A stretch of 64,000 nt of DNA from Planctomycetota bacterium (GTDB lineage Bacteria > Planctomycetota > Phycisphaerae > UBA1845). The position numbers and the translations under genes were made by a program. This document shows, in pieces, positions 3,402-61,470 of this stretch (position 1 is its first letter; each line of letters starts with the position of its first letter). A model generated the notes under the pieces. It did not search any database and had not been told where the DNA came from. It saw only the letters and a program-made list of their open reading frames with translations. The stretch covers positions 47,190-111,189 of the forward strand of contig JAJRPG010000085.1 in assembly GCA_024280855.1 (NCBI GenBank), given 5' to 3'.

Positions 3402-3857
3402 CTATTCTAGCTGCGGGTTAAGTTTGATTGGGCTAGAGGGTTGGCAGAGTGGTGTGCTTCTTCCCGGAGCCGTGAGTAATTCTTCTATTGTCGTTGAGGC
3501 GAACGACTGTTCAACTAGTTCGGTGGCTTCGTCCAGTCGCTTGTGCAGGGGGCAAAGATTTGTCCCGTGCGTTTCAATTCCCAAGGGGCAGGAGTCAATC
3601 CTCTTGATTGGGGCAACGACGTTCACAACATCAAGAACTGTTATCGATTCTGCAGACCTAGCAAGAGTAAACCCACCTCCCAAACCTCGCTTAGAGTTAA
3701 CCAAACCAGCCTTACGCAATGTTTGTAGAACTTTGGGAAGATAACCAGCCGGTACTTTGGTCATTTCTACTAATGTCGGTGTTATCACTGGCTCTCCGCT
3801 CCCTTGAGCGATAGCTACGATGGCTCGTAAAGCGTACTCCGCAGTAGGTGAAATCAT
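3402..3857 (-). CDS. Rrf2-family transcriptional regulator (NsrR-like)
   Basis: N-terminal wHTH (AEYALRAIVAIA...LPKVLQTLRKAGLVNSKRGLGGGFTLAR) and a C-terminal Cys cluster (CPLGIETHGTNLCPL). Divergent from the qNor gene. Confidence 0.85.
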   Translation of the reverse strand: MISPTAEYALRAIVAIAQGSGEPVITPTLVEMTKVPAGYLPKVLQTLRKAGLVNSKRGLGGGFTLARSAESITVLDVVNVVAPIKRIDSCPLGIETHGTNLCPLHKRLDEATELVEQSFASTTIEELLTAPGRSTPLCQPSSPIKLNPQLE

Positions 3858-3877
3858 TGTAGTCTCCGAAACTAACT

Positions 3878-3899
3878 ATTTGGACCTTGACGTCCAAAT
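3878..3899. promoter_or_regulatory. Perfect inverted repeat ATTTGGAC-N6-GTCCAAAT in the Rrf2/qNor divergent region; candidate Rrf2 operator
   Basis: 8-bp arms read directly from the sequence. It lies 21 nt upstream of the Rrf2 start and 74 nt upstream of the proposed qNor start. A TTGACG hexamer sits in the spacer and right arm. Confidence 0.4.
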
Positions 3900-3972
3900 G
3901 GTACGCTATATGCTGGGAGACGTAAAGAGGGTATTTGGAGTCAATTGGCCACAAAGGTTCGGAGGTGTTTTG

Positions 3973-6237: not shown

Positions 6238-6293
6238 AACCACGAAGAATTGGTAACACCGGCAAGAATGGCCGGGGAAAAATGGAGATAGCT

Positions 6294-7028
6294 ATGTTCA
6301 CGAATGAATCAAGAGAACTTACCGTCGGAGAATTAGTCGTTGAAAATCCGAGCCGGGCACGTGTGTTTGAGAAGTTCGGTATTGACTATTGCTGTGGCGG
6401 TAAGATACCGCTCGCTCAAGCCTGTGGTAAGCGTGGTGCAGATATTGAGATTGTTCTGGAAGCGTTGCAACAGTGCGAAACCGGCGCATCACCGGAGTCT
6501 CAGAAGGATTGGTCTAAGGAACCGATGACATCATTAGTGGATCATATTCTGTTGACGCATCACGCATACCTTCGCGAGGAATTTCCACGTCTGACCCAAT
6601 TGACCGAAAGGGTGGCCCAAGTGCATGGCGAGCGTCGCTCTGAATTGCTTCAAGTACGCGATGTATTTATGGCGCTGCGCAATGAATTGGAAATGCACAT
6701 GCAAAAGGAAGAGCAGATTTTGTTCCCTATGATTAAACAGCTGGATTCTGACCCGGCAGGCGAGACAGTGGGCCACTGTGGGTCTATCGCGAATCCAATC
6801 AGCATGATGGAACACGAGCACGATAATGCTGGTGATGCTTTGGGTCAGTTGCGAGATTTGACCGGAGGGTTCGTCCCACCCGAAGACGCATGCAATACCT
6901 ACCGAGTCATGCTCGACAGCTTAGCCAATCTCGAAGCGGATCTTCATCAGCATATCCATAAGGAGAACAATATACTTTTCCCGATGGCTATCGCGAGGGA
7001 GACAAATGCTGTTCACCAAAATTCTTGA
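6294..7028 (+). CDS. ytfE: Iron-sulfur cluster repair di-iron protein (RIC / YtfE / ScdA family)
   Basis: N-terminal ScdA_N motif (FGIDYCCGG) and hemerythrin-like His/Glu repeats (HHAYLREE, HMQKEEQILFP, EHEHDNAGD, HIHKENNILFP). ATG 6294 has a GGAGA RBS; alternative starts are at 6282 and 6234. Confidence 0.88.
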   Translation: MFTNESRELTVGELVVENPSRARVFEKFGIDYCCGGKIPLAQACGKRGADIEIVLEALQQCETGASPESQKDWSKEPMTSLVDHILLTHHAYLREEFPRLTQLTERVAQVHGERRSELLQVRDVFMALRNELEMHMQKEEQILFPMIKQLDSDPAGETVGHCGSIANPISMMEHEHDNAGDALGQLRDLTGGFVPPEDACNTYRVMLDSLANLEADLHQHIHKENNILFPMAIARETNAVHQNS

Positions 7029-8997: not shown

Positions 8998-11900
8998 ATG
9001 CCCTTTGAGGTCATCATGCTATTTGCGCGAAAAAGTCTTGTGGCCTGCAGGATTTCGATTCGGCTTTTAATACCCGGGGGGGCTGCCGTGATCGTTTGTG
9101 AATCGAAAGTTGTTACCAAGTCTTTGTACCATGCCTTTTTTTGTCTATTGACTGGCTGCTTGTTGATGTTGGGGGCGTGTAATAGTGCGCCAGATATATC
9201 TTCTGGCGGGACCAACCAAGCGTCTGACACTGGAGATCCAAGTTCTGATTCTATGCCAGGTGACACTGTTGTTGTTATTGGAGCGGCTGATACCGGAGCG
9301 GATGACGACGACTTGTCACTCATCGCCAAGGCGGATGATTCGACGGACGGGCTTTGGCAGATTGGCGTCGAATCGAAGCGGCGCGTTTCATTGAATGAAT
9401 TCCGGTATGAATGGGATTTCGGAACCGGCGAGATTTTCACCGGCATGATGCAGCGCCGCGTATTTTCTAGCGCGGGTTTGTATACGATAACAGTAAAGGT
9501 GTTTAATCGAAATGACGTTGTTGTAGCTACACTTACTTTGGAAATTGATATTACGGCCCCTGGTGAACCGCCGGTGGCTGACGCTGGTCCTAATCAGGTG
9601 ACGCTTGAGGGCGACTTTGTGTTGCTTGATGGTGCAAATAGCAACGATCCCGCAGATGCGCCGCTGCTTTTCACGTGGACACAAATAGGCGGAACGCCAG
9701 TCTCTTTGGCTAATGCTGATGGCACGGTGGCAAGTTTCGCTGCGCCGCTCGTTGATGAAGACGAAACTATTCAATTCAAGCTTGCGGTGAGTAACGGTGT
9801 TAGTGTTGTCGAGGATATAGTTTTTGTTGATATTTTGAATCGAATCGATAATTCCACCAATACCCTAGTCGTTTATGCCGGTGAAGATCAGACGGTGGCT
9901 ATCGGAGAAACGGTTACGCTGGACGGTAGCCGAAGTAGCAGCACGGATGGGCCGTTATCGTTTTTGTGGACTCAGGTTTCCGGTACGTCGGTGACTATCA
10001 ATGGCGTTACAAGCAACATGGCTACTTTTGTAGCGCCGAATGTTTCCTCTGCGGACCTGTTGACATTCGAGTTAATAGCTTCTGAAGGTAGCCAAATTTC
10101 TCAGGATTTGGTTAACGTGACGGTTGAAGCGAGCGTGACTGATGACTGTCCGAGTGATGCGAATAAAACTGATCCCGGGCAGTGCGGATGCGGCATTGCG
10201 GATACGGATTCTGATGGCGACGGTGTGCTTGATTGTAATGACGGGTGTCCAAATGATCCTGGTAAAAGTGATCCGGGCACTTGTGGGTGTGGTGTTTCGG
10301 ATGTTGATGCGAATGGTGATGGTGTCGCGGATTGTACCGATCAATGTCCCGATGATCCTAATAAAAGCTCACCAGGCCAATGTGGCTGTGGCGTGAGTGA
10401 TACTGATTCCGACAACGATGGTACGCCCGATTGCAATGATGGATGTCCTGGCGATGCGAATAAAATCGTGGTTGGGATATGCGGCTGTGGCGAGCTGGAT
10501 GTTGATACCGACGGGGACGGGGCGTTGGATTGTAACGACCAGTGCCCAGCTGACGCGAACAAAACTCTGCCGGGGATATGTGGCTGCGGAAGAGCGGATG
10601 TCGATGGCGACGGTGATGGCGCTCTTGATTGTAACGATCAATGTCCCAAGGATGCCAACAAAACGCTAGCGGGTGTGTGCGGATGTGGGAATGTCGACAA
10701 GGATGTTAATGGAGATGGCATTTGTGACTCGCAGGCGCCTACGGTTAGCGACCAAAGTGCTACGACCAATCAAGACTCAGCGAAAACCATTACACTGGCT
10801 GGTATTGATTTAGACGGCGATGATCTGACGTTTAGCATTACGTCCGGGCCAGGTAACGGCTCGTTGGGTTCGGTGAATAATAGTGGGACGAGTAGTGCGA
10901 CAGTGGTTTATACCCCCACGGTTGGTTTTTCTGGCACAGACACTTTTGACTTCAAGGCGAATGATGGCGCGATAGATTCTAATGTCGGGACCGTAACGAT
11001 TACTGTCAGCGCCGTGTCGCAAAATCTGACGCTAAGTTTTTCGACCTATTTAGGCGGTAGCAGTGAAGATACGATTCGTGATGTCGTTGTTGATGCAGCT
11101 GGGTTTATATATGTTACTGGCGGCACGAGGTCTTCGGATTTCCCCACGACGGCTGGGGCTTATGACCGGACATTGAATACTGGCAGTTCGTTGGTGCATG
11201 ATGTTTTCGTAGTGAAGTATTCGCCAGCAGGTAGCATCGTTTGGTCTACTCTGCTAGGCGGGCCTGGCTACGATCGCGCATATGCGATTGAAGTGGATCA
11301 AGCGGGTTTTGTATATGTTGGCGGTAGGGCTGGGGCTGGTTTCCCAACGACTAGCGGCGTTTTGCAGCCCAATTTTGCAGGTGATGTTGATCCGAATAAT
11401 AAATATGGCACTCAGGACGGATTTGTCGCTAAACTTTCGCCTGATGGCTCAAGCCTTGTTTGGTCAACATATTTTGGCGACGACGACCGTGCGTTTATTC
11501 GAGATATTGATATCGACAGCCAGGGTTTTGTTTATTTGGCTTTGGCTGAGCTTTCGCGCACGAATCCTCATGTGACAAGCGGGGCGTATCAAACAAGTCA
11601 TGGCGGCTCTACGGATGGCGTCATTGCGAAGTTATCTACAGATGCGACGCAGGTGATGTGGGCTAGTTACTTCGGGGGCAGTGGTCGTGATGTCGGCACG
11701 CCGTCCATTCGGGTGGACTCCTTTGGGCAAGTTCATGTGCTTGGGTTTACGAGTTCAACTAATATCCCTACGACAGCAGGGGCTTATGACCGCACGTTTA
11801 ATGGCGGCAAGGGGGATTTGCATTTAGCGAAGTTTTCGGCAGATGGTTCGCAGTTGCTTTATGGAACCTATCTGGGTGGGTCCGATGTTGAGTTCACTGA

Positions 11901-12468
11901 GACGCATGGGCTGGCGCTGGATAGTGCGGGCAATGCGTATGTAGCTGCGACGACCAGGTCTACGAATTTTCCGACGACGAGCGGTGCGTTTCAAAGGGCG
12001 TATGGCGGAAATGGCGGGTCTGGAACAGGTAGCGGGACGAATTATTCCGGCGATGGTTTTGTTGCTAAAATCTCGGCAAATGGTTCTACCTTGTTATCTA
12101 GCACGTTCCTTGGTGGTCGATATGGCGATGGTGTTGAAGGCATTTCAGTGATGTCAAATGGTGATGTGTTTGTAGCGGGTACGACATTTTCTGATAATTT
12201 TCCTACCACGGCGGATGCTTACCAGAGCAATGGCGGGACCAAGGGCGACTTCTTCGGCGCGTTGCTTGCCAGTGATTTGTCATCCGTAAAATATGTGAGT
12301 TATTTAGGTGGTAGTCGCGACGATTACGGTCGAAGTGCAGCGACGGATGACAATGGCTTTGTGTACGTTGTTGGTCATACTAAATCGACGAATTGGCCCA
12401 GACTCAACGCCGCGCAGACTACGCTAGGCGGAAGTTTGGATGGGGGGATTGCTAAATTCGCGTACTAG
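8998..12468 (+). CDS. Large secreted or lipid-anchored surface protein: PKD-like Ig domains, six TSP3-like Ca-binding/Cys repeats, a cadherin/Ig-like domain and SBBP beta-propeller repeats
   Basis: Lipobox-like LLMLGAC near the N-terminus. Two PKD-like segments (PVADAGPNQ..., VYAGEDQTV...). Repeats of the form DxDxDGxxDCxDxCPxDxxKxxPGxCGCG. An FSGTDTFDFKANDG...VTITV domain. Recurrent xFVxKxSxDGSxLxxSTYLGG propeller repeats. A GTG at 9088 is an alternative start. Confidence 0.85.
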   Translation: MPFEVIMLFARKSLVACRISIRLLIPGGAAVIVCESKVVTKSLYHAFFCLLTGCLLMLGACNSAPDISSGGTNQASDTGDPSSDSMPGDTVVVIGAADTGADDDDLSLIAKADDSTDGLWQIGVESKRRVSLNEFRYEWDFGTGEIFTGMMQRRVFSSAGLYTITVKVFNRNDVVVATLTLEIDITAPGEPPVADAGPNQVTLEGDFVLLDGANSNDPADAPLLFTWTQIGGTPVSLANADGTVASFAAPLVDEDETIQFKLAVSNGVSVVEDIVFVDILNRIDNSTNTLVVYAGEDQTVAIGETVTLDGSRSSSTDGPLSFLWTQVSGTSVTINGVTSNMATFVAPNVSSADLLTFELIASEGSQISQDLVNVTVEASVTDDCPSDANKTDPGQCGCGIADTDSDGDGVLDCNDGCPNDPGKSDPGTCGCGVSDVDANGDGVADCTDQCPDDPNKSSPGQCGCGVSDTDSDNDGTPDCNDGCPGDANKIVVGICGCGELDVDTDGDGALDCNDQCPADANKTLPGICGCGRADVDGDGDGALDCNDQCPKDANKTLAGVCGCGNVDKDVNGDGICDSQAPTVSDQSATTNQDSAKTITLAGIDLDGDDLTFSITSGPGNGSLGSVNNSGTSSATVVYTPTVGFSGTDTFDFKANDGAIDSNVGTVTITVSAVSQNLTLSFSTYLGGSSEDTIRDVVVDAAGFIYVTGGTRSSDFPTTAGAYDRTLNTGSSLVHDVFVVKYSPAGSIVWSTLLGGPGYDRAYAIEVDQAGFVYVGGRAGAGFPTTSGVLQPNFAGDVDPNNKYGTQDGFVAKLSPDGSSLVWSTYFGDDDRAFIRDIDIDSQGFVYLALAELSRTNPHVTSGAYQTSHGGSTDGVIAKLSTDATQVMWASYFGGSGRDVGTPSIRVDSFGQVHVLGFTSSTNIPTTAGAYDRTFNGGKGDLHLAKFSADGSQLLYGTYLGGSDVEFTETHGLALDSAGNAYVAATTRSTNFPTTSGAFQRAYGGNGGSGTGSGTNYSGDGFVAKISANGSTLLSSTFLGGRYGDGVEGISVMSNGDVFVAGTTFSDNFPTTADAYQSNGGTKGDFFGALLASDLSSVKYVSYLGGSRDDYGRSAATDDNGFVYVVGHTKSTNWPRLNAAQTTLGGSLDGGIAKFAY
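10141..10734 (+). repeat. Six tandem 99-nt (33-aa) coding repeats (TSP3-like Asp-rich plus CGCG module)
   Basis: Six consecutive units starting DDCPSDANKTDPGQCGCGIADTDSDGDGVLDCN. The spurious alternate-frame ORFs at 10072..10669 mirror the periodicity. Confidence 0.85.
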
Positions 12469-20839: not shown

Positions 20840-22297
20840 CTAGAATTTCATTTGGTATTGAACATAGAATAAATCGGCGTCTTCGCTCGGTCCGGTTTGC
20901 TCGATGACCGTACTATCCCAGAAGTGGGAATAGCCAAACAGCATCGACTGGTGTTTATCCATCTTGACCGCGACAGTGAGGTCTAGTTCATGTCCGATTT
21001 CCCGGCCACTGTTACCAAAAATATCACGGCGACCAGCACCAGCCCCGGCATTATAAATAGCATCACGTTTAGCGTTAAGCCAAAATGTGTGATAGGCCGC
21101 TCTCGCCTTGACTTTTTTCGCTACTGGCCAAGCGGTTAGGTTTACGTTTACAGCGGTAATGTTTTGCCTTCCGATTAGGTCCATGTATCCGAAGTATTTG
21201 TGGCCGAGTGGGAATAATTGGTTAAACGTGCCGACCTTGCCATCAAAGGGGTCTTCGTCGCCGCTGGCCCAGTCGAAACCTGCGCCGATTCGAGGTTTTC
21301 CTGAAGCGTCGGCGAATGTGTAACCACCATCGATAGTCCAACTCCAGGCTTGAATCGTATCACCTGCCCAAGTGCCCCATTGCCCAGCTATTTCAGCTTC
21401 GTAGTCCATAGGCCCATGCTTGCCCCAGAACCTGCTGCCGAGCATGTATCGCGTGGTATCGCCGATGTTGCCATTAGGATTTACCGTCTTATTCGTATTG
21501 TTAATGGCTAAAGCGTATAAGTCCAAGCCGTGATTCGGAATGCCCTTATAAGTTGCATAGGCGCCATAAAAATCAAAGTCCTCATTGTATCGGTCGCGTT
21601 GCTTACGTTGAACGATGACGGGTTTTACGAAAAACAAATCCACGTCCCACGTTTTACCCTTGGCAAATAATTTTACACCATCGAAGCGGCGTCGAATATT
21701 TCCCCATTCAAAAGGAGAGATAAACCTTTGGTTTCCGTATTGCAAGTCCTGCCGACCTACGCGAAGCGTCAACGGCAAATCCTCACCCAGCACGCGAATG
21801 TCGAAAAATAATTGTTGCAAATCCCATTTGTTTTCATCGATACCGCGCAAAGGTAAATCACGATGCTCATCGAAAGCGCTCATCCCTTGTACGAAAACTC
21901 GAAATAGTTTCTGGTATTTGAAATCAGCGTGAAGCATATAGCGGTATAACTCAAACGTATCGTTCGCTGGCTCGGTGGCACCAAAACCCTTATTGGTTTC
22001 CGATTCCAGTCGAAAGCGAAATTCGCCGCCGAGTGTCAAATTCCAATCGTTGCCCAGGTCGATGTTTTTGAGCGGGTCAAAAAGGTCTGGTTCATAATCA
22101 TATGTTGCGTCGTCGGGGTAGCTAAAATTCTCGTCGTACCGAAGGTTTAATAATTTCGGATGGTTAACCTTCTTAATTGACAACGTCTTGTCAGCAGGGG
22201 GTGCGTCTGTATTTTGTCCTAATGAAATGCTTGGGCAAACGCATAGCATGGCGTAAATGCCAATCAGATGGGACGAGTGAACTCGATTGCGAAACAT
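20840..22297 (-). CDS. Outer-membrane beta-barrel porin (alginate-export/AlgE-like family)
   Basis: Signal peptide, alternating amphipathic beta-strand pattern, aromatic-rich, and a C-terminal YQMKF ending in Phe. The family assignment is by overall resemblance only. Confidence 0.55.
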   Translation of the reverse strand: MFRNRVHSSHLIGIYAMLCVCPSISLGQNTDAPPADKTLSIKKVNHPKLLNLRYDENFSYPDDATYDYEPDLFDPLKNIDLGNDWNLTLGGEFRFRLESETNKGFGATEPANDTFELYRYMLHADFKYQKLFRVFVQGMSAFDEHRDLPLRGIDENKWDLQQLFFDIRVLGEDLPLTLRVGRQDLQYGNQRFISPFEWGNIRRRFDGVKLFAKGKTWDVDLFFVKPVIVQRKQRDRYNEDFDFYGAYATYKGIPNHGLDLYALAINNTNKTVNPNGNIGDTTRYMLGSRFWGKHGPMDYEAEIAGQWGTWAGDTIQAWSWTIDGGYTFADASGKPRIGAGFDWASGDEDPFDGKVGTFNQLFPLGHKYFGYMDLIGRQNITAVNVNLTAWPVAKKVKARAAYHTFWLNAKRDAIYNAGAGAGRRDIFGNSGREIGHELDLTVAVKMDKHQSMLFGYSHFWDSTVIEQTGPSEDADLFYVQYQMKF

Positions 22298-28393: not shown

Positions 28394-28824
28394 AAAATAC
28401 CTAAACCACTAGAGTTACCCAATCTGGTAGAGCATAGTCCCATAACACAGATTCAAACGGCTCGGTATAAAGTGCCAATTACTGAGTAGTTTTATCGAAC
28501 AGCTTTAAGCATATTCTGCGCTTAAAGAACATTATTGCTATTAGTGTTTCATTTTGCTAGCATGAGGAAGCGATTTTGCGTATCCACGCGACAGGCTCTC
28601 CGTGTGGAAGGTGGGGCCACCTTCCGGTAGAGCTTGATACATCGCGCGTCCAGGGACGGTAATAAGAACAGTTGCACCTTTCGATTTAGCGAGTGATTCG
28701 CTCTGATCGAAATGGTTTCGATGGATATAGGGATAGTTTTTGCGCGTTGATTGTGTGTAATCGAAAACGGCCGAAATAGATCGGAAATTACATTTTGTTT
28801 TTTGGGAAATATCAGGAGAAGATT

Positions 28825-30642
28825 ATGAGAAAGTATCTTAGTTTAGGTATGTTGGTTTTAGGGCTGATGCTCAGCCCGGTGATGGTTCAGGCTGTTCCTG
28901 AAGGGGAAGCGTCGGATGCGTCAGGTGTTAATGACACGACGGGGATGGCTCAAGGTCTAGGCGCATTAGGTGCAACGCCATTGGAAGTAGATGGTTGGAT
29001 TTCTACGAATGATCCCGACGACATTGACTTCTACTCTTTCACGGGAACCATGAACCAATGGGTGGCCCTTGGTATTAATCACGGAGACGGTAGAGGCGGA
29101 CTTGACGACGTAGACACGGGGCTGGCCTTGTTTGCGCCAGATCAACGGTTGATCGCTCGTGATAATGACACGATGGGAAACGATCCATTGATCGCTAGTG
29201 TTAGATTACCCATGACGGGAACGTATTATGTGGCCGTGACTCATAATGACAACGAACCAAACAGTTTGTCCGGTGGCGATGTAGCATTTGTAGATCTTCA
29301 TTTGGGCGGTGAGTTAATCGTTGGCGCTATGCTCGACACAATTCAGAACGGTAATGGAGCCGACTCAGGCGACTATACGCTTACCATTGTTGACGCTGAC
29401 GTGCTCGTGCCAGTTGCTCACTCGGCATATGGCGGCGGGCAAGAAGGTCTACCGTTTGATCCAGGCAAGCGTCGCAGTCAACTTTATAACGGCGCACCTC
29501 GTGCATCAATCGGCGTTGATGGCTTAACGTTTAACGCGGTCGATGGCGATTTTGAATTAGAATCGGCTACTTTTGGGCCAGCACGTGTGTTTGATGATGA
29601 CAGTCTGGTTTACTTTTCGGTGGATTCGGGGACCGGCCGCGGCGATCTTGATGATACAGGTGTTGACTTAGCCTCAGGTAACGGGCAGCGTGCGGCTAAT
29701 GTGTATAGCTCATCACGCAACGAGTCCAATGAGTTGGCCATTGAAGCCTGGCGTATGGGATATGAGCCTGATGCTAGTCCCAATATGGACGCTCTCGTTA
29801 TGGGGACCGCCTCCGAAAACGCATACCCAGTTTTCCAGGGCAATTCGGTTGTTGATTTTGTCTATGACCACACTTTTCCAGTATATTTCACGACTGATGA
29901 CGATGAATTTGCTAACTCTGAATCTGACATTCTAGTCGTAAATTCTCCAACCGATGCACCACATGTGTTTAAGTATGCCGCTGAGCTTGGCCTTGATGAT
30001 GATGTTGATGATACCCAGATTGATGGGCTTGTCATGATCATCAAAGATGGTGTCTTAGGTGTAGCTTTTTCTCTGGAGGTTGATGGTGCTTTTGGCCTTT
30101 CTGGTACCGCAGTAGATGATGAAGAAGGTGGTTGCTATGAGGGTACAAACGTCTACTTCTCACCTTGTGATGGAACCAATGAATTGCTCATTTCCGGTGA
30201 AGATTTGGGCTTCCAATGCGGCGGCGACATTAACGCCCTCGATATGATGTTCACCCCACCACCACCACCGTCGTCAGGCACTGGCGTTCAAGGTCCACAG
30301 GGTCCACAGGGTGAAGACGGTGTCGATGGTGCAGACGGTGCAGACGGTGCCGATGGTGATGGTTTTCCAGGGCCAGTCGGACCAGCCGGGCCAACCGGAG
30401 AACAAGGTGAGCAAGGAGAAGCCGGCCCAGTAGGTCCAGCCGGTCCACAGGGCGAAGCCGGTCAAGACGGTGCTAATGGCCAAGATGGACCAGCGAGCGC
30501 TCCAGCACCAGGTCAAACTGTGCCAGAAGGTGGTACAAGCACGAATCCGCTATGCGGAACTATGAGCGTAGCCACGATTCCGACCATGCTGTTTGGCCTG
30601 CTCGCTATGGGCTTCATGCAGCGTCGCGCTCGTCGCTGGTAA
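28825..30642 (+). CDS. Secreted protein with a PPC-like N-terminal domain, a collagen-like GXY region and a C-terminal sorting-signal-like tail
   Basis: AGGAG RBS and a signal peptide. DDIDFYSF...GTYYVAVT pre-peptidase-C-terminal-like segment. About 23 GXY triplets (30283..30495). Tail [21 protein letters not shown]. Confidence 0.7.
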
Positions 30643-47436: not shown

Positions 47437-47764
47437 TCCCTAGCCACATCTCTTTTCTGAACACTTCATACTTCAGGCTGTTAGATGTCAGGAAGCTGAC
47501 CAACTCAGTTAGAACTTCGTAATCTAACAGAGTGAAATGTGACGTGTGGAATAAGGCCGGAATGCTAAGTCTGGAACTGGACCTCAGTATACAGGCCATA
47601 CCTTAATGACCGATAATTAACTGCTCATAATTACTCACGATCCGTACGAGCGATAAGACCAGATTGTAAACGTTTGTAGATTATCATCCATGTGATTATT
47701 CGCCGATATTTCATTAGTGCAAAGCATTGTTCTTCTATCGTGTTTGGTCAAGTAGATCCTAACT

Positions 47765-48250
47765 GTGAAACAGAAAGTGCAAATACCTTTGCGAAGCGCC
47801 CTCATGCGTGGATTTACTCTTGTAGAATTGGTATGCGTGGTTGTCATTATTGGCATGATGGCCACTATCGCAGTCCCAAGGTTTGGCAATTCCATTGCGT
47901 TGCATCGAATTGAATCGGCCGGCAGGCGTATCGTGGTGGACCTTGCGCTTGCACAATCACTGGCCAAAACTACAAACAAAAGTATCAAAGTTAAGTTTGA
48001 TGTTGCTTCAAATTCGTACATTTTGAGTAAAATACCACACCCTGACCATCCAAGTCGCGAATACGAAACATTTCTACAAGAGGAACCTTACGTCGCCACC
48101 ATTGAATCCGTAGATTTTGGGGGAGGCAACGACATTAAATTCGATGTGTTTGGTGTTCCAGATAATGGTGGATCGATTGTCATCCGTGTGGGAAATAGAG
48201 TTCGAACAATTTCGGTTGACGCAGACACGGGGAAGGCCAGTGTGCTATGA
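47765..48250 (+). CDS. Prepilin-type minor pseudopilin, GspH/FimT-like
   Basis: The leader ends RG|FTLVELVCVVVIIGMMATIAVPRF (class III signal with Glu+5). 161 aa. ATGA overlap with the next gene. Confidence 0.75.
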   Translation: MKQKVQIPLRSALMRGFTLVELVCVVVIIGMMATIAVPRFGNSIALHRIESAGRRIVVDLALAQSLAKTTNKSIKVKFDVASNSYILSKIPHPDHPSREYETFLQEEPYVATIESVDFGGGNDIKFDVFGVPDNGGSIVIRVGNRVRTISVDADTGKASVL

Positions 48251-49413
48251 CAACCCTGCGTAAGCATAAGAAGCCACGTCGTCATCCTGTGCGCCGATTA
48301 GGTTTCACGCTCGTTGAGTTAACCATGAGCATGGCTATCATGACCATTCTCATGGGCACTATGACATCTGTCATAGTCGTCGCTAGCCATGCCATTCCCG
48401 ACAGCCAAGATCCCATCACAAAAAAAATAAAAGCCATGGAAATAGTAGATCTGATGGCTAGTGAGATTTTCTATGCAAATGCCATTACGGAGGCATCAGT
48501 AAATTCTGTCACCTTCACTGTCGCAGATCGCGGACACGGCGCCGCTGGGCCGGAAACTATTCGTTATGAATGGTCAGGGACGCCGGGCGATCCACTCACA
48601 CGGCAGTACAACGGCGGAACAGTTACAACAATAATTGATGATGTTCAGCTTTTCACACTGGTCTTCACGGCGAGCACTAAGCCGCTGCAAGGGGCACCGA
48701 AGGTGCTGCTCGTGGTTGGCGACGACGTATCTCTGAACGCCCAGGACCTGGCCAAGCAGGCACTGATCGAATCCTTTGGATTCTCGGTCCAGATAGTCGC
48801 AGCGTCCAGAAGTGTGGCGGAATTCAGCCCTCTCATCGCCAGCCACGACGTCATGTACATCTCAAACCAGATTACCAAGGCCGATATTCTCAACAAGTCC
48901 CTGGATCTTGCGATCGGCATAATCACCGAGAAGCGTAAGCTATACGACGACTTGGGAATCGCAGCGAAACCAAGCTGGGATGATTTGGACAGAGTCCACT
49001 TAATCGACAACACACACGAAATTACATCCCCCTTTGCCATCGGAGAAGTGATCATTTGCGACTCGACCCAGCAACTCAACTACATCACGAAGACCAAACA
49101 CGCCCCTGGGCTTCAAATCCTGGCCGATTGGGCTGGCTGGCCCGAGTTGTCCGTCCTTGACCTTGAAGCCGAGCAGTACGGCGGCGGCACCGCTAAGGGT
49201 CGTCGTGTGCAGCTACCCTGGGGTGACTCAACAAATTTTGACACGAATAGCCTGAACACGGACGGTCTAACCATCATGCGTCGAGCGATTGCCTGGGCAG
49301 CTGCACGTGTTGTGTACACTGGCGCCCGCATCGACTTGCAATTGAACGGTGTTTCAGTGGCTGCCAGATCGCAAGTGTCGATTCTTAACAAACCCAAAGC
49401 GATTGCGCCATGA
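48247..49413 (+). CDS. Prepilin-type pseudopilin (PulJ/PilW-like N-terminal part) fused to an unassigned ~200-aa alpha/beta domain
   Basis: RRLG|FTLVELTMSMAIMTILMG signal. The C-terminal domain (48697..49305) is paralogous to the one in the next gene. ATGA overlaps at both ends. Confidence 0.65.
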   Translation: MTTLRKHKKPRRHPVRRLGFTLVELTMSMAIMTILMGTMTSVIVVASHAIPDSQDPITKKIKAMEIVDLMASEIFYANAITEASVNSVTFTVADRGHGAAGPETIRYEWSGTPGDPLTRQYNGGTVTTIIDDVQLFTLVFTASTKPLQGAPKVLLVVGDDVSLNAQDLAKQALIESFGFSVQIVAASRSVAEFSPLIASHDVMYISNQITKADILNKSLDLAIGIITEKRKLYDDLGIAAKPSWDDLDRVHLIDNTHEITSPFAIGEVIICDSTQQLNYITKTKHAPGLQILADWAGWPELSVLDLEAEQYGGGTAKGRRVQLPWGDSTNFDTNSLNTDGLTIMRRAIAWAAARVVYTGARIDLQLNGVSVAARSQVSILNKPKAIAP

Positions 49414-51035
49414 TGCTTATTAATGCCAGGAGCAATCTTAGTGCTATGCGTCGCCGAGGGCTAACGCTGCTCGATATACTCATCTCCATTCCGCTCGTAG
49501 GCATCGCTCTGGTGGCGGCATTAAACACTGCCGGCGCGTCCAAAGCCTCCCAGTATAAAGTCAACAATATGCGACAGGGCCATTTACTAGCCCAGGATTT
49601 AATGTCAGAAATTCTGCAGCAGGACTTCTATGACTCAATAGATGGATTTTTAAGTTTTGGACAAGAGGGTATTGTACCAATCACGTTGAATCGTAGCCTA
49701 TTCGACGACACGGATGATTACAACTTATGGCAAGCCTCTCCACCACAGTACAAAGATGGAACGGAGATGAGCGATTTGCCAGATTGGCAACGCACAGTTG
49801 ACGTCGCATGGCGAATGCCAGCAGATTTACAACAAATCTCAGCTACAGCTACAACTATTAAACATATTCGAGTGAATGTTTTATACAAAGGTATGGCTGT
49901 TGCCGAAATCGAAGCCTTCAAGACAATAGGTCTACCACCGCTGGAAGCTTGCTGTTTTGCTGGCAGTTTATGTGAGAATTTGCGCAGCGAAGCTTGTACA
50001 TTACAAGGCGGGACCGCGCTTGGGACGAGTACGAATTGCGCTCTTAGCGCATGTCCTGCAGGACCTAAAGTTTTGTTAGTCGTGGTTGATGACACCGCTT
50101 TAACTGCACAAGAATTAGCTCAGAAGGTACTCATTGAATCATGGGACAATAGTGTTGTGCTTATCTCGGCGTCGGCCATGCTCTTCGAATTTGATGCGGC
50201 GGTGGCTGACGCAGACGTGGCATTCATTACTGTGGGGATTACATCAAGCGATCTGGGCACCAAGTTAACCGCCGCCGCAATCGGCGTTGTGAATACGCAT
50301 CCCGAATTACTTTACGACCTCAAGTTTTCATCCGGGGCCGCTTACTATTATGATTTGAGCGCTGGCGTAGTTATAGACAACACTCATCCCATCACATCCA
50401 CTTTCACCAATGGTCCCCTGACCTTTTCGACGACTAATCAATGGTTTGTGGAAAATCAGAACGGCTTAGCTAGTGGTGCTCAGGTTCTAGCAGTACTCAC
50501 TGATTCGACTAGGGCTTCGCTGTTTGTCTTCGAGGCAGGAGCCTCATTGGTGGGAGGCACACCGTCACCAGGTCGTCGAGTTGAATTGCCTTGGGGGTTT
50601 ACAGACTTCGACTTCAGTACACTCACGGCGGATGCACAGACAATTATGAAAAACGCCATAGAATGGGCTGCTGCGGAAAATATTGCAGCGATTGCGGTGT
50701 GTGGTGACGGCACATGCGCGGTGGGTGAGGAATGCAGTTGTGTGGCCGACTGCGGACCGCCAACCGTTTCCGAGATCATTAACTCCACATGCAATGATGG
50801 CAAAGACAACGACTGCGATAACTTAACCGACTGTCAAGAGTTATCATGTTTTCTTGATCCTGCATGCGCGGTGGTATGCGGTAATAATGTTTGTGACAAT
50901 GGTGAGGATTGTAGTAGTTGCGCCGCAGATTGTCCTGGAAAAACTAAGGGGAAGAAACCTAAACGATATTGTTGTGGGAATGGAATTGCTGAATCAGCTG
51001 AGGGCGATGGGAGCATTTGCGATGGAAACTACTAG
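49410..51035 (+). CDS. Atypical pseudopilin (GspI/PilV-like, G|LTLLD with Asp+5) with two Cys-rich modules and the same ~200-aa domain
   Basis: RRRG|LTLLDILISIPLVGIALVAAL. Cys-rich linker (EACCFAGSLCENLRSEACTL...CALSAC). Domain at 50064..50675. 119-aa Cys-rich tail containing NDGKDNDCDNLTDC and CGNNVCDNGEDC. Confidence 0.65.
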   Translation: MMLINARSNLSAMRRRGLTLLDILISIPLVGIALVAALNTAGASKASQYKVNNMRQGHLLAQDLMSEILQQDFYDSIDGFLSFGQEGIVPITLNRSLFDDTDDYNLWQASPPQYKDGTEMSDLPDWQRTVDVAWRMPADLQQISATATTIKHIRVNVLYKGMAVAEIEAFKTIGLPPLEACCFAGSLCENLRSEACTLQGGTALGTSTNCALSACPAGPKVLLVVVDDTALTAQELAQKVLIESWDNSVVLISASAMLFEFDAAVADADVAFITVGITSSDLGTKLTAAAIGVVNTHPELLYDLKFSSGAAYYYDLSAGVVIDNTHPITSTFTNGPLTFSTTNQWFVENQNGLASGAQVLAVLTDSTRASLFVFEAGASLVGGTPSPGRRVELPWGFTDFDFSTLTADAQTIMKNAIEWAAAENIAAIAVCGDGTCAVGEECSCVADCGPPTVSEIINSTCNDGKDNDCDNLTDCQELSCFLDPACAVVCGNNVCDNGEDCSSCAADCPGKTKGKKPKRYCCGNGIAESAEGDGSICDGNY

Positions 51036-51516
51036 ACACCGCGCGGTTCGGTCTGCCACCAGCCTGAATGCGAACAAGTTTCGCCGCCGCGCTGTAGCCT
51101 ATATCTACTTTTTGAGTTCCACGTTACTCGTCTCTGTTATTGGCTTGTCAGCTTTGATGTTCTCACGGATCCAAAGGCGATCGACTCAAGGTAGCAATCA
51201 ATCCATAGTGGCTCGTTTCTACGCTCAATCTGCACTGGAACTTGGCTTTGCACAAATCAACCTGGACTCAGACTGGCGTACAACATTAAGTACTGGTACA
51301 TGGTTCTCAGCTATGCCAATAGGGCAAGGTAGTTATAGCCTTGATGTGTCCATCGTGAAAAACGGTGACGGTAACACCAACAACGACCCCGTCTTACTCA
51401 TTGGCACCGGCATTTGTGGTCAATCAACCCATAAAATAGAAGTAACACTCGTCCCCTTATCTGATAATGGTGGATTAGTGATTTCCGGTGCAGGATGGAA
51501 ACGTAACACAGGTTAG
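51022..51516 (+). CDS. PilX-N/GspK-like minor pseudopilin
   Basis: The ORF 50854..51516 overlaps the previous gene out of frame. ATG 51022 gives a basic leader, a hydrophobic helix (AVAYIYFLSSTLLVSVIGLSALMF) and a RFYAQSALELGFAQI PilX-N-like helix. Confidence 0.55.
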   Translation: METTRHRAVRSATSLNANKFRRRAVAYIYFLSSTLLVSVIGLSALMFSRIQRRSTQGSNQSIVARFYAQSALELGFAQINLDSDWRTTLSTGTWFSAMPIGQGSYSLDVSIVKNGDGNTNNDPVLLIGTGICGQSTHKIEVTLVPLSDNGGLVISGAGWKRNTG

Positions 51517-51553: not shown

Positions 51554-51598
51554 CGGAGCGGGAGGGATTCGAACCCTCGGTACGGTTTTGTAACTCCT
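51554..51598 (-). pseudogene. Orphan tRNA 3' fragment (T arm plus 3' acceptor strand)
   Basis: The reverse complement contains GAGGG-TTCGAAT-CCCTC followed by CCGCTCCG. No complementary 5' acceptor (GGAGCGG) occurs within 200 nt, so this is not an intact tRNA. Confidence 0.5.
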
Positions 51599-51689: not shown

Positions 51690-51905
51690 TGACCTGGCCT
51701 GCTACTCAAAACCTGGTCCAGTTGTTATAGAGTCTTAGCCGCCTGTTGATCGGGCAGGGAGGACTTGGATATGAAACGTAAGCTACACAGTCCTGGGCAG
51801 ATTATTCGCAAGCTTCGGGACGCGGATCGGATATTGTTGGAGGGCAAGGAATTCGCGTCACGAAGGATATTCGTCGGCGCGTCTGTCCGACGATTGAGCG
51901 ATTAG
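51690..51905 (+). mobile_element. IS3-family remnant: TG-initiated terminal repeat and a truncated orfA (44 codons)
   Basis: TGACCTGGCC... lies about 80 nt upstream of an ATG at 51771 with a GGGAGG RBS. The peptide MKRKLHSPGQIIRKLRDADRILLEGKE resembles IS3/IS911 OrfA N-termini and then degenerates to a stop at 51905. Confidence 0.45.
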
Positions 51906-59017: not shown

Positions 59018-59992
59018 CTAAGTAAGTTGCATCGCATTTGTATCATGGGCAGCCATCGGGCTTTCGCCACACAAGACAGGATCAATCGGACTACCATCCG
59101 ATGACATGGCTAATGGATTAGATCTTGATCCGCATGCTGAAATCTGGCTATCTCGATAAGCAAGGGAGATTCCGAGAACGTCCAAAATTAGTCCGACTCG
59201 CCCATCGCCAAGGATGGCCGCCCCGGAAATTCCGCGAAGACCTTCGAACCGTTCACCGAGCGACTTAATGACAACTTGCTGCTGTCCGAGCAACTCATCT
59301 ACGACAAGCCCGATCTCTCCACTTGCGTATTGGGCAATCACTACCATCGCATTACATGGATCAACGTACTCGCCGAGCTGGAACAACGGCCCTAATGGAA
59401 CGAGCGGAATCAGACGACCCCGAACATTGAGTACGGCACCAGAGTGCTGCACAGTCGTGATCTGTCCCGGCTTGGGACGCAGCGCCTGCTCAACCGCGAT
59501 GGTTTGGATGATGAAGCGTTCCGAACCAACTCGCAGGAGCATGCCATCAATGATAGCCAGCGTCAGCGGAAGGCGAATCGAAAACGTACTCCCTTTGCCG
59601 AGGGTCGATACGATGTCACATTTCCCTCTCAGGTTCTCTATATTTCGCCGAACTACATCCATGCCTACCCCGCGCCCGGATACGCCAGTCACGACCTCAG
59701 CAGTCGAGAACCCGGGCGCGAATATGAGGTTGTATGCTTGCTCGTCGGAGAGACGCTCACCCGGTTGCACGATGCCCTTCTCAATCGCCTTCTTGATGAG
59801 TGCGTTAGGGTCGAGTCCTTTCCCGTCATCGGTAATTTCAACAACTATGTTACCGCCACTATGAAATGCGGAGAGCGTCACATTTCCCGAATCCGACTTT
59901 CCTGCTGCACGCCGCGCATCGAGTGGCTCGATGCCATGATCCACAGCGTTCCGAACCATATGCACAAGCGGATCGCCGATCTGCTGAATCAC
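59018..59992 (-). CDS. cheA: CheA histidine kinase, C-terminal fragment (P4 HATPase and P5 CheW-like domains)
   Basis: N box HMVRNAVDHGIE, G1 DDGKGLD, G2 GVSGRGVGMD and a CheW-like tail. Separated from the N-terminal fragment by a frameshift at a T5/A5 run (60039..60043). Confidence 0.85.
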   Translation of the reverse strand: MIQQIGDPLVHMVRNAVDHGIEPLDARRAAGKSDSGNVTLSAFHSGGNIVVEITDDGKGLDPNALIKKAIEKGIVQPGERLSDEQAYNLIFAPGFSTAEVVTGVSGRGVGMDVVRRNIENLRGKCDIVSTLGKGSTFSIRLPLTLAIIDGMLLRVGSERFIIQTIAVEQALRPKPGQITTVQHSGAVLNVRGRLIPLVPLGPLFQLGEYVDPCNAMVVIAQYASGEIGLVVDELLGQQQVVIKSLGERFEGLRGISGAAILGDGRVGLILDVLGISLAYRDSQISACGSRSNPLAMSSDGSPIDPVLCGESPMAAHDTNAMQLT

Positions 59993-60033: not shown

Positions 60034-61470
60034 CTACGTTTTTCCAACTTTTCGTGAGACATCACGAACAAGGCGAGCCATCTTTTGAAACGTAGGTCCA
60101 ATGGGAATCATGCGCATCGCCATGGCAGCATCCTGAACGTCTCGGACGATTTTCGTTGCCTGCGCAACATCTTTTGAGAGCTTCGGAGCCATGCTGAGTT
60201 GCGAACTCGCACTAACTTGTGTCTGAGCAATCACAAGCTCGCCGACCATGTCAATCAACGAATCAAGCTTTCTCGTGTCAATGCGTACAGATTGTTCACC
60301 GCCTCCATTTCCTATTTTGGTTGTCGTCTCAGGCTTGGTCTTGCTTTGAGGTCGTAGGGCCTGGCTAATTTGTTTGGCGCTGGCCGCCCCAATTTCGATT
60401 AGCGTCTCACCAACTTTTTTCGGATCGGATTCACGATCCTGCTTGGCCACTGCATAGTCCACCACTTCTTGAGGCACCGCGCCCTGCTCCACCAGGTTTT
60501 CTCCAACCGTCTGTTGCGAGCCTCCGGTATTAGGCACGATACCAACAGGTTCGATCCTACCTGCGACGATGTCACGGAGTTTGGCAATCATGTTTTCAAT
60601 CGGAGGTTGTGGAACTGATTCACTCGTCGGATCACTGAGGTACTCACGAATGCTTGCAAACTGCACCTTTATAATATCCACGACTTCAAAAATCAGATCG
60701 ATTAGCCCCGCCGTCACCTTGCGTGTTCCCTTGCGAGCTTGATCTAGCAAGGTTTCCGCTTCGTGAGTCAAGCTCACGATGTCACGCAGATTCAGGAAAC
60801 CAGCCGCCCCCTTAATTGTATGGAACGGTCGAAAAAGAGAATCGATGGCTTCGGTGTCATCAGGTGCACGTTCAACATCAAGCAGTGCAGCCTCGATGGA
60901 GTCGAGATGCTCACCAGCCTCTTCAGCGAAACCGGCTACCATTTCCGTTTCGTCGTCTCCGATTATCAATGGTTCTGCAACATACCCTGGCTGAGATTCG
61001 TCTTTTCCTGATGCGGGTTCGTCTTTCGCCGCCACAGTGTCAACTTCGGATTCCGGTACAAGCTCCTCCGGACTAGTCTCCTGGTGTCGGTCAGGCTCAT
61101 CATCTTCAAACACTCGGTCCATACTGGCGGCAACAGTTTCGTCGCTCGGAATACCTGGGGCGGTGGGGCAATCCGGCTCTACGGGAAGGCTCGTCATGGT
61201 ATTTGGTAAACTGGATATCGACGCAACGATCTTACGCATGACTGTACTAGGGTCATCAGCCTTTCCGAGAATCAAGGCCTCCAACGAGCTGACCAAGTCC
61301 TTCGCTTCTTGGCACGACAGCGCATCGATACCGGCCACTACTAGTTCCTCGCACAGCTCATGCATTTTAGCCAAGCCAGGAAGATCGTTTTCGTCGATGC
61401 CATCCAACAGCCCGTGAAGGCTTTCGATGCATGCTGTCGTCGAGAAGCTTTTTGGAATTTCTTCGTTCAT
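60034..61470 (-). CDS. cheA: CheA histidine kinase, N-terminal fragment (P1 Hpt, linker, P3 dimerisation)
   Basis: Hpt H-box FRPFHTIKGAAGFLNL and P3 SVRIDTRKLDSLIDMVGELVIAQ. It ends ...RDVSRKVGKT* exactly where CheA proteins continue into P4. Confidence 0.85.
   Translation of the reverse strand: MNEEIPKSFSTTACIESLHGLLDGIDENDLPGLAKMHELCEELVVAGIDALSCQEAKDLVSSLEALILGKADDPSTVMRKIVASISSLPNTMTSLPVEPDCPTAPGIPSDETVAASMDRVFEDDEPDRHQETSPEELVPESEVDTVAAKDEPASGKDESQPGYVAEPLIIGDDETEMVAGFAEEAGEHLDSIEAALLDVERAPDDTEAIDSLFRPFHTIKGAAGFLNLRDIVSLTHEAETLLDQARKGTRKVTAGLIDLIFEVVDIIKVQFASIREYLSDPTSESVPQPPIENMIAKLRDIVAGRIEPVGIVPNTGGSQQTVGENLVEQGAVPQEVVDYAVAKQDRESDPKKVGETLIEIGAASAKQISQALRPQSKTKPETTTKIGNGGGEQSVRIDTRKLDSLIDMVGELVIAQTQVSASSQLSMAPKLSKDVAQATKIVRDVQDAAMAMRMIPIGPTFQKMARLVRDVSRKVGKT

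Follow-up and report, generated by a model that had tools for sequence, protein, structure and literature searches.

An orphan set of minor-pilin-like genes in a Planctomycetota bacterium with a predicted amidotransferase-like module on two neighbouring subunits

Results

Four overlapping genes form one cassette

We analyzed a stretch of 64,000 nucleotides from a Planctomycetota bacterium of the Phycisphaerae (contig JAJRPG010000085.1, positions 47,190 to 111,189 of the forward strand), hereafter called the window. On its + strand, positions 47765-51516 hold four co-directional, intact open reading frames (ORFs), g1 to g4, that encode minor-pilin-like proteins (Table 1). The first-pass annotation of the window, made by a model from the letters alone, had taken these genes for one operon from overlaps of ATGA, ATGA and 14 nt, and the junctions, when read directly, bear this out. 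The g1/g2 overlap reads ctATGAc and the g2/g3 overlap ccATGAtg, and in the 14 nt shared by g3 and g4 the ATG of g4 lies at 51022 and the TAG of g3 at 51033-51035. The four genes are thus one tightly coupled cassette. The GTG at 47765 is most likely the start of g1, as it gives a leader of 16 residues, the same as in the g1 homologues, and the alternative ATG at 47804 leaves a leader of 3 residues only. Identical products are called for g4 (164 aa) and g2 (388 aa) in the NCBI record. A large protein collection yielded 487 homologues of g2 and 110 of g3, the E-values reaching as low as 1e-280 and the synteny being conserved; this number of homologues, together with the synteny, shows that g1 to g4 are real genes and not chance ORFs.

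Table 1. Features of the cassette and of the gap upstream of it; a slash in a signal separates positions −1 and +1.
Feature	Position	Strand	Size or residues	Description
Gap from epimerase gene to g1	47437..47764	+	328 nt	Likely cassette promoter region
g1	47765..48250	+	161 aa	GspH-like minor pilin; GTG start; signal MKQKVQIPLRSALMRG/FTLVE
g2	48247..49413	+	388 aa	J/W-position modular minor pilin; signal ...RRLG/FTLVE
g2 amidotransferase-fold module (predicted)	48694..49305	+	residues 150-353	Between pilin strands 133-145 and 354-378
g3	49410..51035	+	541 aa	I/V-position modular minor pilin; signal ...RRRG/LTLLD
g3 first Cys-rich module	49938..50063	+	residues 177-218	6 Cys; pLDDT 82-87
g3 amidotransferase-fold module (predicted)	50064..50675	+	residues 219-422	Appended after pilin part
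g3 Cys-rich tail	50676..51032	+	residues 423-541	18 Cys; motifs CGDGxC..GE.C and C.DG.DNDCD; pLDDT 32-84
g4	51022..51516	+	164 aa	Short K/X-position minor pilin; RRRA/VAYIY, then ARFYAQSALELG helix

Relatives join the cassette to filament machinery

A genome scan with one genome per species gave 80 loci (designated L and a number), and g1 to g4 were compared with the ORFs of these loci by BLAST. All relatives are metagenome-assembled genomes (MAGs), and the ORF starts in the GC-rich loci are approximate. The loci belong to Planctomycetota MAGs (Phycisphaerae, Pirellulales, Planctomycetales and others) except for three that are labelled Anaerolineales or Granulosicoccus, and the order g1-g2-g3-g4 is near-universal among them. 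Typical sizes in the family are ~165 aa for g1, ~365 or 550 aa for g2, ~180 aa for g3 and ~300-600 aa for g4.

L038 is a complete Phycisphaerales chromosome, and its cassette comes last in a longer operon with the order STAS, T2SSE with MshEN, T2SSF, PilM, PilN, PilO, a 176-aa protein, two major pilins and g1 to g4. The machinery of this locus was verified with Pfam, the PilN and PilO matches lying below the Pfam gathering scores. Its ATPase carries the MshE-type motif for binding of cyclic di-GMP and scored 576 bits on the PilB model and 568 bits on GspE, both under the cutoff. Homologous cassettes linked to machinery were found in L038, L024, L040, L013 and L073, and those of L013 and L073, which lie inside the machinery operons, also bear the module described below. 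By tblastn with a relative's machinery proteins, a GspE-like gene was located within 10 kb of the cassette in 28 of 83 loci. Neither a PilY1-like gene nor a secretin gene adjoining the Planctomycetota operons was seen. Evidently, the cassette is conserved across Planctomycetota and is machinery-linked in many relatives.

In the Planctomycetota operons a gene for a small STAS protein (1625-1960 in L038) lies before that of the MshE/PilB-like ATPase, and the ATPase of L084 (17265-19355) has a STAS domain fused at its N-terminus. This arrangement suggests partner-switching-type control of this filament subtype.

The copy in the window is an orphan. As the first-pass annotation had stated for secretin, ATPase and platform, no such gene is present: tblastn of the window with a relative's ATPase, platform, PilM, PilN, PilO and major pilins gave zero matches, Pfam scans of the larger ORFs in the window found no filament machinery, and no class III-type N-terminus was found in the window besides those of the cassette. 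The closest relative, L083 from the Phycisphaerae MAG OFTM182 (79% identity in g3 and 53% in g2), is likewise an orphan with an upstream epimerase gene, and another g2-like gene of the OFTM182 assembly lies in L023. JAJDDW01 (L023 and L083) and JABISG01 (L007 and L011) each have more than one cassette.

N-terminal signals and subunit types

The class III signal of type IV pilins and pseudopilins was found in the cassette through g1 and g2, which both pass the profile models: Pfam N_methyl (PF07963) gave 23.1 bits for g1 and 22.6 bits for g2 against a gathering score of 21.2, and TIGR02532 gave 27.3 and 18.4 bits against a cutoff of 16.3. The g3 signal has Gly at −1 and Asp at +5 (RG/LTLLD). 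This Asp had been regarded as unusual in the first-pass annotation, but of 45 sequences of the g3 family 42 have Glu at +5 and 3 have Asp, and we rejected the Asp as a meaningful deviation since it is a conservative minority state in which the charge is kept. The g4 signal has Ala at −1 and a residue at +5 that is not acidic. In the alignment of the g4 family Tyr at +3 is invariant, and −1 is Gly in 29 and Ala in 5 of the 34 members. To judge from the sequence, the lack of Glu5 followed by the ARFYAQSALELG helix is the pattern of GspK/PilX-type subunits.

Profile searches place the four proteins among the minor-pilin types with scores under the family cutoffs. By its profile scores g1 appears GspH-like and is not a certified GspH member, with E 0.014 and 16.3 bits for PF12019 (cutoff 21, not reached) and E 1.5e-9 and 38.1 bits for TIGR01708 (cutoff 80, not reached); its homologue in L002, 44% identical, has a recorded PF12019 match, and in the PDB the g1 family profile finds N-terminal helices of pilins. 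The PilV model TIGR02523 matched g3 at 0.0097 and 16.4 bits (cutoff 52.2, not reached) and the g3 of a relative at 8.6e-4, and the g3 of L038 scored 19.8 bits. GspK (NF037980) matched the long g4 of L038 at its N-terminus only (5.9e-5, 22.7 bits vs 130), and weak PilX_N (PF14341) matches (0.021) were obtained for 2 of the 34 g4 family members. The g4 of the window matched neither NF037980 nor PF14341, and the large domain of the GspK type is absent from its 164 aa. When the g2 and g3 sequences and the g2 and g4 family profiles were compared with PDB sequences, only pilin N-terminal helices or noise were retrieved, and in the search for a characterised family to which g2 or g3 might belong no family cutoff was reached beyond the pilin N-terminus. 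The order H, J/W, I/V and K/X first proposed for the four genes agrees with these weak profile matches, and the stronger evidence for it is the synteny with machinery in the relatives.

g2 and g3 are pilins that carry a further domain

An AlphaFold2 model of g2, built on 62 homologues (predicted local distance difference test, pLDDT, 92.5; predicted TM-score, pTM, 0.82), comprises a long N-terminal helix, pilin sheet strands in 79-145, an alpha/beta domain in 150-353 and two strands in 354-378 that return to the pilin part. The g3 model (pLDDT 83.7) has a helix in 20-69 and a sheet in 126-172, followed by a 6-Cys module, an alpha/beta domain and an 18-Cys tail with the limits given in Table 1. 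A domain of ~200 aa placed after the pilin part had been proposed for both proteins; this holds for g3, where the domain is appended, but not for g2, where it is inserted inside the pilin sheet. In both models a pilin module is thus combined with a non-pilin structural module, as in modular pilins.

The two Cys-rich modules noted earlier in g3 were confirmed by count, as all of its 24 Cys lie there (6 and 18) and none elsewhere. These 24 are all conserved wherever homologues have the regions in question, and for the first module this concerns 26 homologues that keep all 6. Residues 458-488 of the tail gave a weak match (0.0042) to a Cys-rich stretch of teneurin-4. The alpha/beta domains of the two proteins are copies of one module, with 40% identity between g2 150-350 and g3 218-419 (E 4e-31).

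The shared module has a predicted amidotransferase-like fold and no conserved Cys

The fold of the module, which spans ~205 aa, was assigned by Foldseek comparison of the AlphaFold models with the PDB. Both copies, left unassigned in the first-pass annotation, matched the class I glutamine-amidotransferase-like fold with probability 1.0 and E 8e-6 to 1e-3, at TM-scores of 0.5-0.7 normalised to target length and a sequence identity of 6-15%. For the g2 copy the matches included TrpG (1i1q_B, 7.7e-6, TM-score 0.66 to target) and a ThuA-like protein (4e5v_B, 2e-5), and for the g3 copy SpuA (8e-6) and again TrpG (1i1q_B, 2.2e-5, TM-score 0.71 to target); gamma-glutamyl hydrolase and the glutaminase domain of GMP synthetase were other enzymes among the matches. 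Both copies also matched 6c26_B, a chain of the yeast oligosaccharyltransferase complex, at 4.4e-4 and 5.1e-4. The Wbp1 subunit of the oligosaccharyltransferase complex has a GIFT domain that is proposed to bind sugars (PMC7226087). As modelled, the shared module has a class I glutamine-amidotransferase-like fold, and it is without the catalytic Cys.

Across 305 module copies from large proteins the most conserved columns are R320 (100%), W350 (99%), H257 (97%) and R319 (97%), followed by P324 (94%), R346 (91%) and E228 (80%), and the conserved motifs are DNTH[EYP]IT, GRRV.LPWG and W350. No conserved Cys column exists among the 305 copies, and a catalytic Cys-His-Glu triad was not found; the copy in g2 contains a single Cys, which is not conserved, and the copy in g3 contains none. 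From the order of secondary-structure elements in the model, E228 would stand after the fourth strand, the nucleophile site of this fold.

No Pfam or NCBIfam model matched the module in a scan of all 62 members of the g2 alignment. In the same members, the search for ThuA-like (PF06283) and GIFT (PF09822) domains gave one weak ABC_transp_aux match only (E 0.12, 1 of 62), and the likeness of the module to these domains appears to be structural only.

The g2 pilin sheet is an insertion hot spot

A hidden Markov model (HMM) of the g2 pilin core was composed of the N-terminal part and the C-terminal hairpin. It matched most g2 proteins in two pieces ~190-200 residues apart, both in a module-type g2 (21-159 and 356-390 in L002) and in what we call a baseline g2 (9-133 and 336-372 in L038). 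Insert-free g2 proteins of 165-175 aa from L021, L030, L045 and L074 gave one unbroken match of ~165 residues. Since such insert-free relatives exist, the g2 module is an addition to a pilin, and the split and unsplit matches together show that the site accepts no insert, an unrelated insert of ~200 residues, or one or two modules. The pilin core around the site is very highly conserved (FTVADRGHGAAGPETIRYAWSGTPGDPLTRQYNGG).

The insert of the baseline g2 (L038 9998-11119, and others) lies at the same hot spot and constitutes a second type of pilin module. We considered it as a diverged copy of the first and rejected this, as hhalign gave a probability of 0.1%; it has no detectable sequence identity to Pfam or PDB entries.

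The module was detected only in a subset of the cassettes (L001-L018, L021, L030, L073 and the window), where either g2 or g3 alone carries it, both carry it, or g2 carries two copies. Loci in which g4 is short (<230 aa) tend to have an expanded g3 (Mann-Whitney p 6e-5), and the module is present in 12 of 14 loci with a short g4 vs 6 of 52 with a long one (Fisher p 3e-7), counts that in both cases ignore shared ancestry. At the place of the module, the g3 proteins of L002 and L005 carry LamG (PF13385), and CBM_4_9 is present in four long g4 proteins.

The module recurs on filament-tip proteins outside the cassette

A profile of the two module sequences of the window was searched, with clustering at 50% identity, and the module was found in 2,011 clusters at E <=1e-3 and in 493 at E <=1e-30. 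The best matches are mostly proteins of 700-1,700 aa with 2-4 tandem copies (one has 9), in which the module is accompanied by CBM96, LamG, Disaggr_repeat, DUF6701 or N_methyl. CBM96 is an alginate-specific family (PMC9971899). Several of the module-bearing proteins are named PilX, PilV or PulG by the Joint Genome Institute, and a crude pattern picks out, in about 91 of 198, a hydrophobic segment at the N-terminus with an A..Y.AEAGL-type helix after it. With an HMM of the N-terminus of g4, 12 module proteins gave a match, P0289 the strongest (2.5e-16). The Pfam models PF28243, PF28247 and PF28238 were considered as models of the module and rejected, as all are sub-domains of DUF6701.

Two loci place the module at the end of filament operons. 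In L084 a K-like module protein of 1,539 aa ends a four-gene H-I-J-K cassette, preceded by H-like (G/MSLLE), I-like (G/VTYIE) and J-like (G/FTYVE) genes, and this cassette adjoins the genes for a fused STAS-MshEN-T2SSE ATPase and T2SSF. In L085 a DUF6701 protein carries two modules in its N-terminal part. It starts with an ordinary signal peptide and not with a pilin N-terminus, and it stands at the last position of an MSHA-like (mannose-sensitive haemagglutinin) operon, which we take to be the place of mshQ. Filament-tip proteins in at least two phyla thus carry the module as a recurring cargo.

The J-position pilin of L084 (7009-8004) has a long Asp-rich insert with DNDGDGQIDED, DDDGDGGADN and DDDGDNNIDED, and these D.D.DG-like repeats look like tandem calcium-binding loops.

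Genomic surroundings in the window

The genes for CapD-like, WecB, Ugd and epimerase proteins upstream of the cassette were confirmed. The cassette does lie directly downstream of these nucleotide-sugar genes, as first annotated, but the juxtaposition is not conserved: in the flanks of the relatives WecB, Ugd and CapD homologues are absent except for one WecB and two distant epimerases, and the epimerase adjoining the cassette is kept only in the closest relatives. We therefore rejected a functional link between the cassette and the upstream genes. In the gap before g1 a weak sigma-70-like match was found at 47588-47617 (9 of 12 positions), and promoter-like sites in the gap show no enrichment over shuffles, so a promoter of the cassette is not established.

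Just downstream of g4, 51554-51590 resembles the T-arm and acceptor end of a tRNA, with a GGGATTCGAACCCTC core; ARAGORN calls no tRNA there, and Rfam gave other families only, below threshold (a plastid 3'UTR element, 31.9 bits vs 68). It is followed at 51771-51905 by a 44-codon ORF (MKRKLHSPGQIIRKLRDADRILLEGKEF...), presumably similar to the start of an IS3-type OrfA. The two together may be a mobile-element scar beside the orphan cassette.

A convergent chemotaxis cluster starts at 51994. It contains CheB, CheR, CheX, CheY, HDOD, CheD and FapA genes around a CheA that is spread over two ORFs ~40 nt apart (59018-59992 and 60034-61470, − strand), one half with Hpt and H-kinase_dim and the other with HATPase_c and CheW; the interruption could stem from a frameshift or from an error in sequencing, or the kinase could truly be split. 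The first ~48 kb of the window have a positive GC skew, and the skew is negative beyond ~52 kb, with the cumulative maximum near the cassette; its turn coincides with the switch of the genes from the + to the − strand.

Further away, an AlgE-type 'alginate export' outer-membrane porin (PF13372, 5.8e-92) is encoded at 20840-22297 (−), which is of note as the pilin module elsewhere co-occurs with the alginate-binding CBM96. The 1,156-aa protein encoded at 8998-12468 (+), with PKD, cadherin-like, Big_9 and SBBP beta-propeller repeats, is likely a large surface adhesin, and in a 615-aa protein encoded at 28795-30642 (+) collagen triple-helix repeats are joined to a pre-peptidase C-terminal (PPC) domain. 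A small unit for nitric-oxide stress is formed by a NorB-type nitric-oxide reductase, to which a cytochrome c-like domain is fused (3820-6237, +), and the ScdA/hemerythrin iron-sulfur repair protein that follows it (6234-7028, +).

Discussion

Taken together, our results make it on balance probable that g1 to g4 are an orphan minor-pilin set that forms a fibre-tip complex displaying probable glycan-binding modules. The gene structure, the homology, the predicted folds, the synteny with machinery in relatives, the hot spot and the distribution of the module are direct results of the analysis; for the processing, the fibre assembly, the tip location and the ligand, we infer the following course. 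The four proteins would serve as an alternative, orphan set for the type IV filament typical of Planctomycetota (MshE/PilB-like ATPase, STAS, GspF and PilM/N/O). By analogy with GspH-I-J-K and FimU-PilV-W-X, a prepilin peptidase would cleave g1 to g4, their N-terminal helices would join into a fibre-priming complex, and this complex would stay at the tip of the fibre, with g4, which is without Glu5, as its cap. The usual large g4 domain being missing, g2 (by sheet insertion) and g3 (by C-terminal fusion) may present their modules instead, and these, together with the disulfide-rich parts of g3, would face outward at the tip and act as ligand-binding heads, probably for glycans, in attachment. 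Glycan recognition is suggested by the company of LamG, CBM_4_9 and CBM96 and by the sugar binding proposed for non-catalytic relatives of the fold. An orphan cassette beside a machinery-linked one in the same genome further suggests exchangeable tips. Display of an enzymatic or binding domain by a tip complex, as first proposed, remains the best reading, and it gains support from the presence of the module on K/X-like giant pilins and on the protein at the MshQ position.

Several observations weigh against this interpretation. ATPase, platform, major pilin, secretin and prepilin peptidase are all absent within the 64-kb window. The g3 protein reaches no Pfam pilin model, g4 alone matches no known minor-pilin model and has Ala, not Gly, at −1, and the H/J/I/K typing consists of sub-threshold profile matches together with gene order. 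At the position of Glu228 the g3 module of the window has Thr296, where Glu is found in 38 of 47 homologues. The filament itself could be a short secretion pseudopilus and not an external pilus, since the PilB and GspE scores of the ATPase are near-equal and both below the cutoff.

If it were a pseudopilus, the cassette would form the tip of a machine like the type II secretion system (T2SS) and the modules would act in the periplasm, for instance by recruiting or pushing substrates. The matches of g1 to GspH models, of a relative's long g4 to GspK and of a relative's major pilin to the GspG N-terminus are in line with this, as are the 568 bits of a relative's ATPase on GspE and the lack of a retraction ATPase in the operons examined. 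The machinery, however, consists of PilM, PilN and PilO and not of GspC, GspL and GspM, and the N-terminus of the ATPase is of the cyclic di-GMP-binding MshE type and the protein scores slightly higher as PilB (576 bits). PilM, PilN and PilO together with the MshE-type ATPase favour a pilus over a pseudopilus. The module also occurs at the MshQ position of an MSHA-type pilus operon, carbohydrate-binding cargo suits external adhesion, and two 23-kDa modules plus a Cys-rich tail would probably be bulky for a secretin vestibule. We regard a pseudopilus as clearly unlikely. The same low probability is given to a catalytic role of the module, which would be compatible with a tip complex and would make it a polysaccharide or peptide hydrolase or lyase acting via Glu228 and His257. 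In favour of this, the closest structures are without exception enzymes (TrpG, SpuA, gamma-glutamyl hydrolase and the GMP synthetase glutaminase), the polar set is strongly kept (E228 80%, H257 97%, R319 97%, R320 100%, R346 91%), Glu228 is predicted at the nucleophile site from the order of secondary structure, and the module co-occurs with the alginate-binding CBM96 (PMC9971899). A conserved Cys or Ser nucleophile is nevertheless absent, and Glu228 is replaced in 20% of the copies, by Thr in the g3 of the window. Non-catalytic members of the fold are common, a ThuA-like protein and the oligosaccharyltransferase-complex chain being among the matches, and tandem arrays of 2-9 copies resemble binding repeats more than catalytic domains.

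It is very unlikely that the pilin-like N-termini are mere membrane anchors, cleavable or not, of periplasmic or surface proteins with no filament involved. Planctomycetota genomes encode very many proteins with a prepilin-type N-terminus whose role is not known, the window is without machinery, and g3 and g4 fail the pilin profile models, all of which would suit such anchors. The four-gene order is on the other hand conserved, its last member is without Glu5, and in many relatives it is joined to machinery genes; in addition, the g2 pilin core (FTVADRGHGAAGPETIRYAWSGTPGDPLTRQYNGG) is very highly conserved, as expected of a subunit-subunit interface. That the orphan cassette is an inactive remnant of a rearrangement or a mobile element we consider extremely improbable. 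The tRNA-like 3' fragment, the 44-codon ORF presumably resembling an IS3-type OrfA start just downstream and the lack of machinery nearby point that way, but the four ORFs are intact with their start/stop overlaps preserved, the conserved residues are kept in both modules except for the Glu to Thr change in g3, and the same orphan layout, with the epimerase upstream, is seen in the closest relative (53-79% identity).

Beyond the fibre-tip complex with probable glycan-binding modules, a wider proposal can be made, which we hold to be rather unlikely: that the module is an unnamed, widespread family on the tips of STAS/MshE-like filaments across phyla and acts on acidic polysaccharides such as alginate. 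It would then be either a new carbohydrate-binding type or a Cys-less enzyme using Glu, His and Arg-Arg, and the fibres would be 'fishing lines' with which marine Planctomycetota and Gammaproteobacteria capture or process polysaccharides.

Minor pilins, small proteins with which fibres of the type IV pilus kind are started and capped, determine the targets to which such a fibre attaches, and outside a few pathogens their heads are unknown. Here one unannotated family is found on subunits at the J, I and K positions as well as on a protein that occupies the MshQ position, and known carbohydrate-binding modules accompany it. Its naming and characterisation would annotate thousands of proteins now called 'hypothetical' or 'prepilin-type domain', and would provide a concrete, testable handle on the attachment of Planctomycetota to polysaccharide-rich particles and algae. 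The cassettes also provide a natural graft series in a pilin fold, with no insert, an unknown insert, one module or two modules at one hot spot, in which the K subunit shrinks as its neighbours expand.

Comparison with known systems

A close parallel is to GspH-I-J-K and FimU-PilV-W-X, with which the cassette shares four translationally coupled pilin-like genes, the last without Glu5, as well as weak GspH, PilV and GspK matches and, in the relatives, a position directly after major pilins and machinery. It differs from them in its order, H-J-I-K, in that no family cutoff is reached, in a K position cut to 164 aa and in the ~205-aa modules on J and I; the copy in the window is moreover detached from machinery, and no PilY1-like gene was seen. 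MshQ and the MSHA operons are similar in that the relatives' ATPase has the MshEN cyclic di-GMP-binding domain and in that the module occurs twice on a last-position DUF6701 protein (L085), whereas this protein has an ordinary signal peptide and the Planctomycetota operons have PilM, PilN and PilO.

Within the Planctomycetes-Verrucomicrobia-Chlamydiae (PVC) superphylum, the Verru_Chthon cassette A-D of Verrucomicrobia (TIGR02600, 02598, 02599 and 02596) is likewise a four-gene prepilin-type cassette. Verru_Chthon D (TIGR02596) matched g1 at 5.5e-10 with 39.7 bits (cutoff 70) and Verru_Chthon C (TIGR02599) matched g2 at 7.7e-5 with 22.1 bits (cutoff 256.5), both in the N-terminal helix only, and a baseline g2 matches no model. 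Myxococcus xanthus has multiple interchangeable minor-pilin clusters. The Planctomycetota resemble it in having more than one cassette per genome, one in the machinery operon and others elsewhere, and differ in that no PilY1 partner was seen here. With class I glutamine amidotransferases both modules share the predicted fold, but the module is without the catalytic Cys, conserves other residues and would be extracytoplasmic on a pilin.

Modular pilins are widespread, with LamG among the common modules, and known cases are PilB (vWA) and PilC (lectin) of Streptococcus sanguinis, CofB, ComZ and GspK, in which an alpha-domain is inserted in the sheet; many further modules are predicted to escape detection for want of signatures (PMC8179133). 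As in these, a functional module is here grafted on a pilin, in g2 by insertion in the beta-sheet as in GspK, and LamG is the alternative in relatives; the amidotransferase-like fold and the paralogous copies on two adjacent subunits set the present case apart. Since Pfam and NCBIfam are blind to the module, an InterPro-based census of modular pilins would have missed it, and the parts of the text and supplements of PMC8179133 available to us make no mention of an amidotransferase-like fold. Within a literature search of incomplete coverage, no paper was found that describes this module on pilins, nor one that pairs 'minor pilin' with 'amidotransferase-like'. The first-pass annotation had not recognised the architecture as a described one; it falls, however, under the modular-pilin principle, of which it is a case (PMC8179133). 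What is new here is the identity of the module, a predicted amidotransferase fold without Cys that has no name in the versions of Pfam and NCBIfam searched, its occurrence on two subunits next to each other together with a K subunit that is reduced, the hot spot for insertions, and the tie of the module across phyla to tip proteins of a STAS/MshE-type system.

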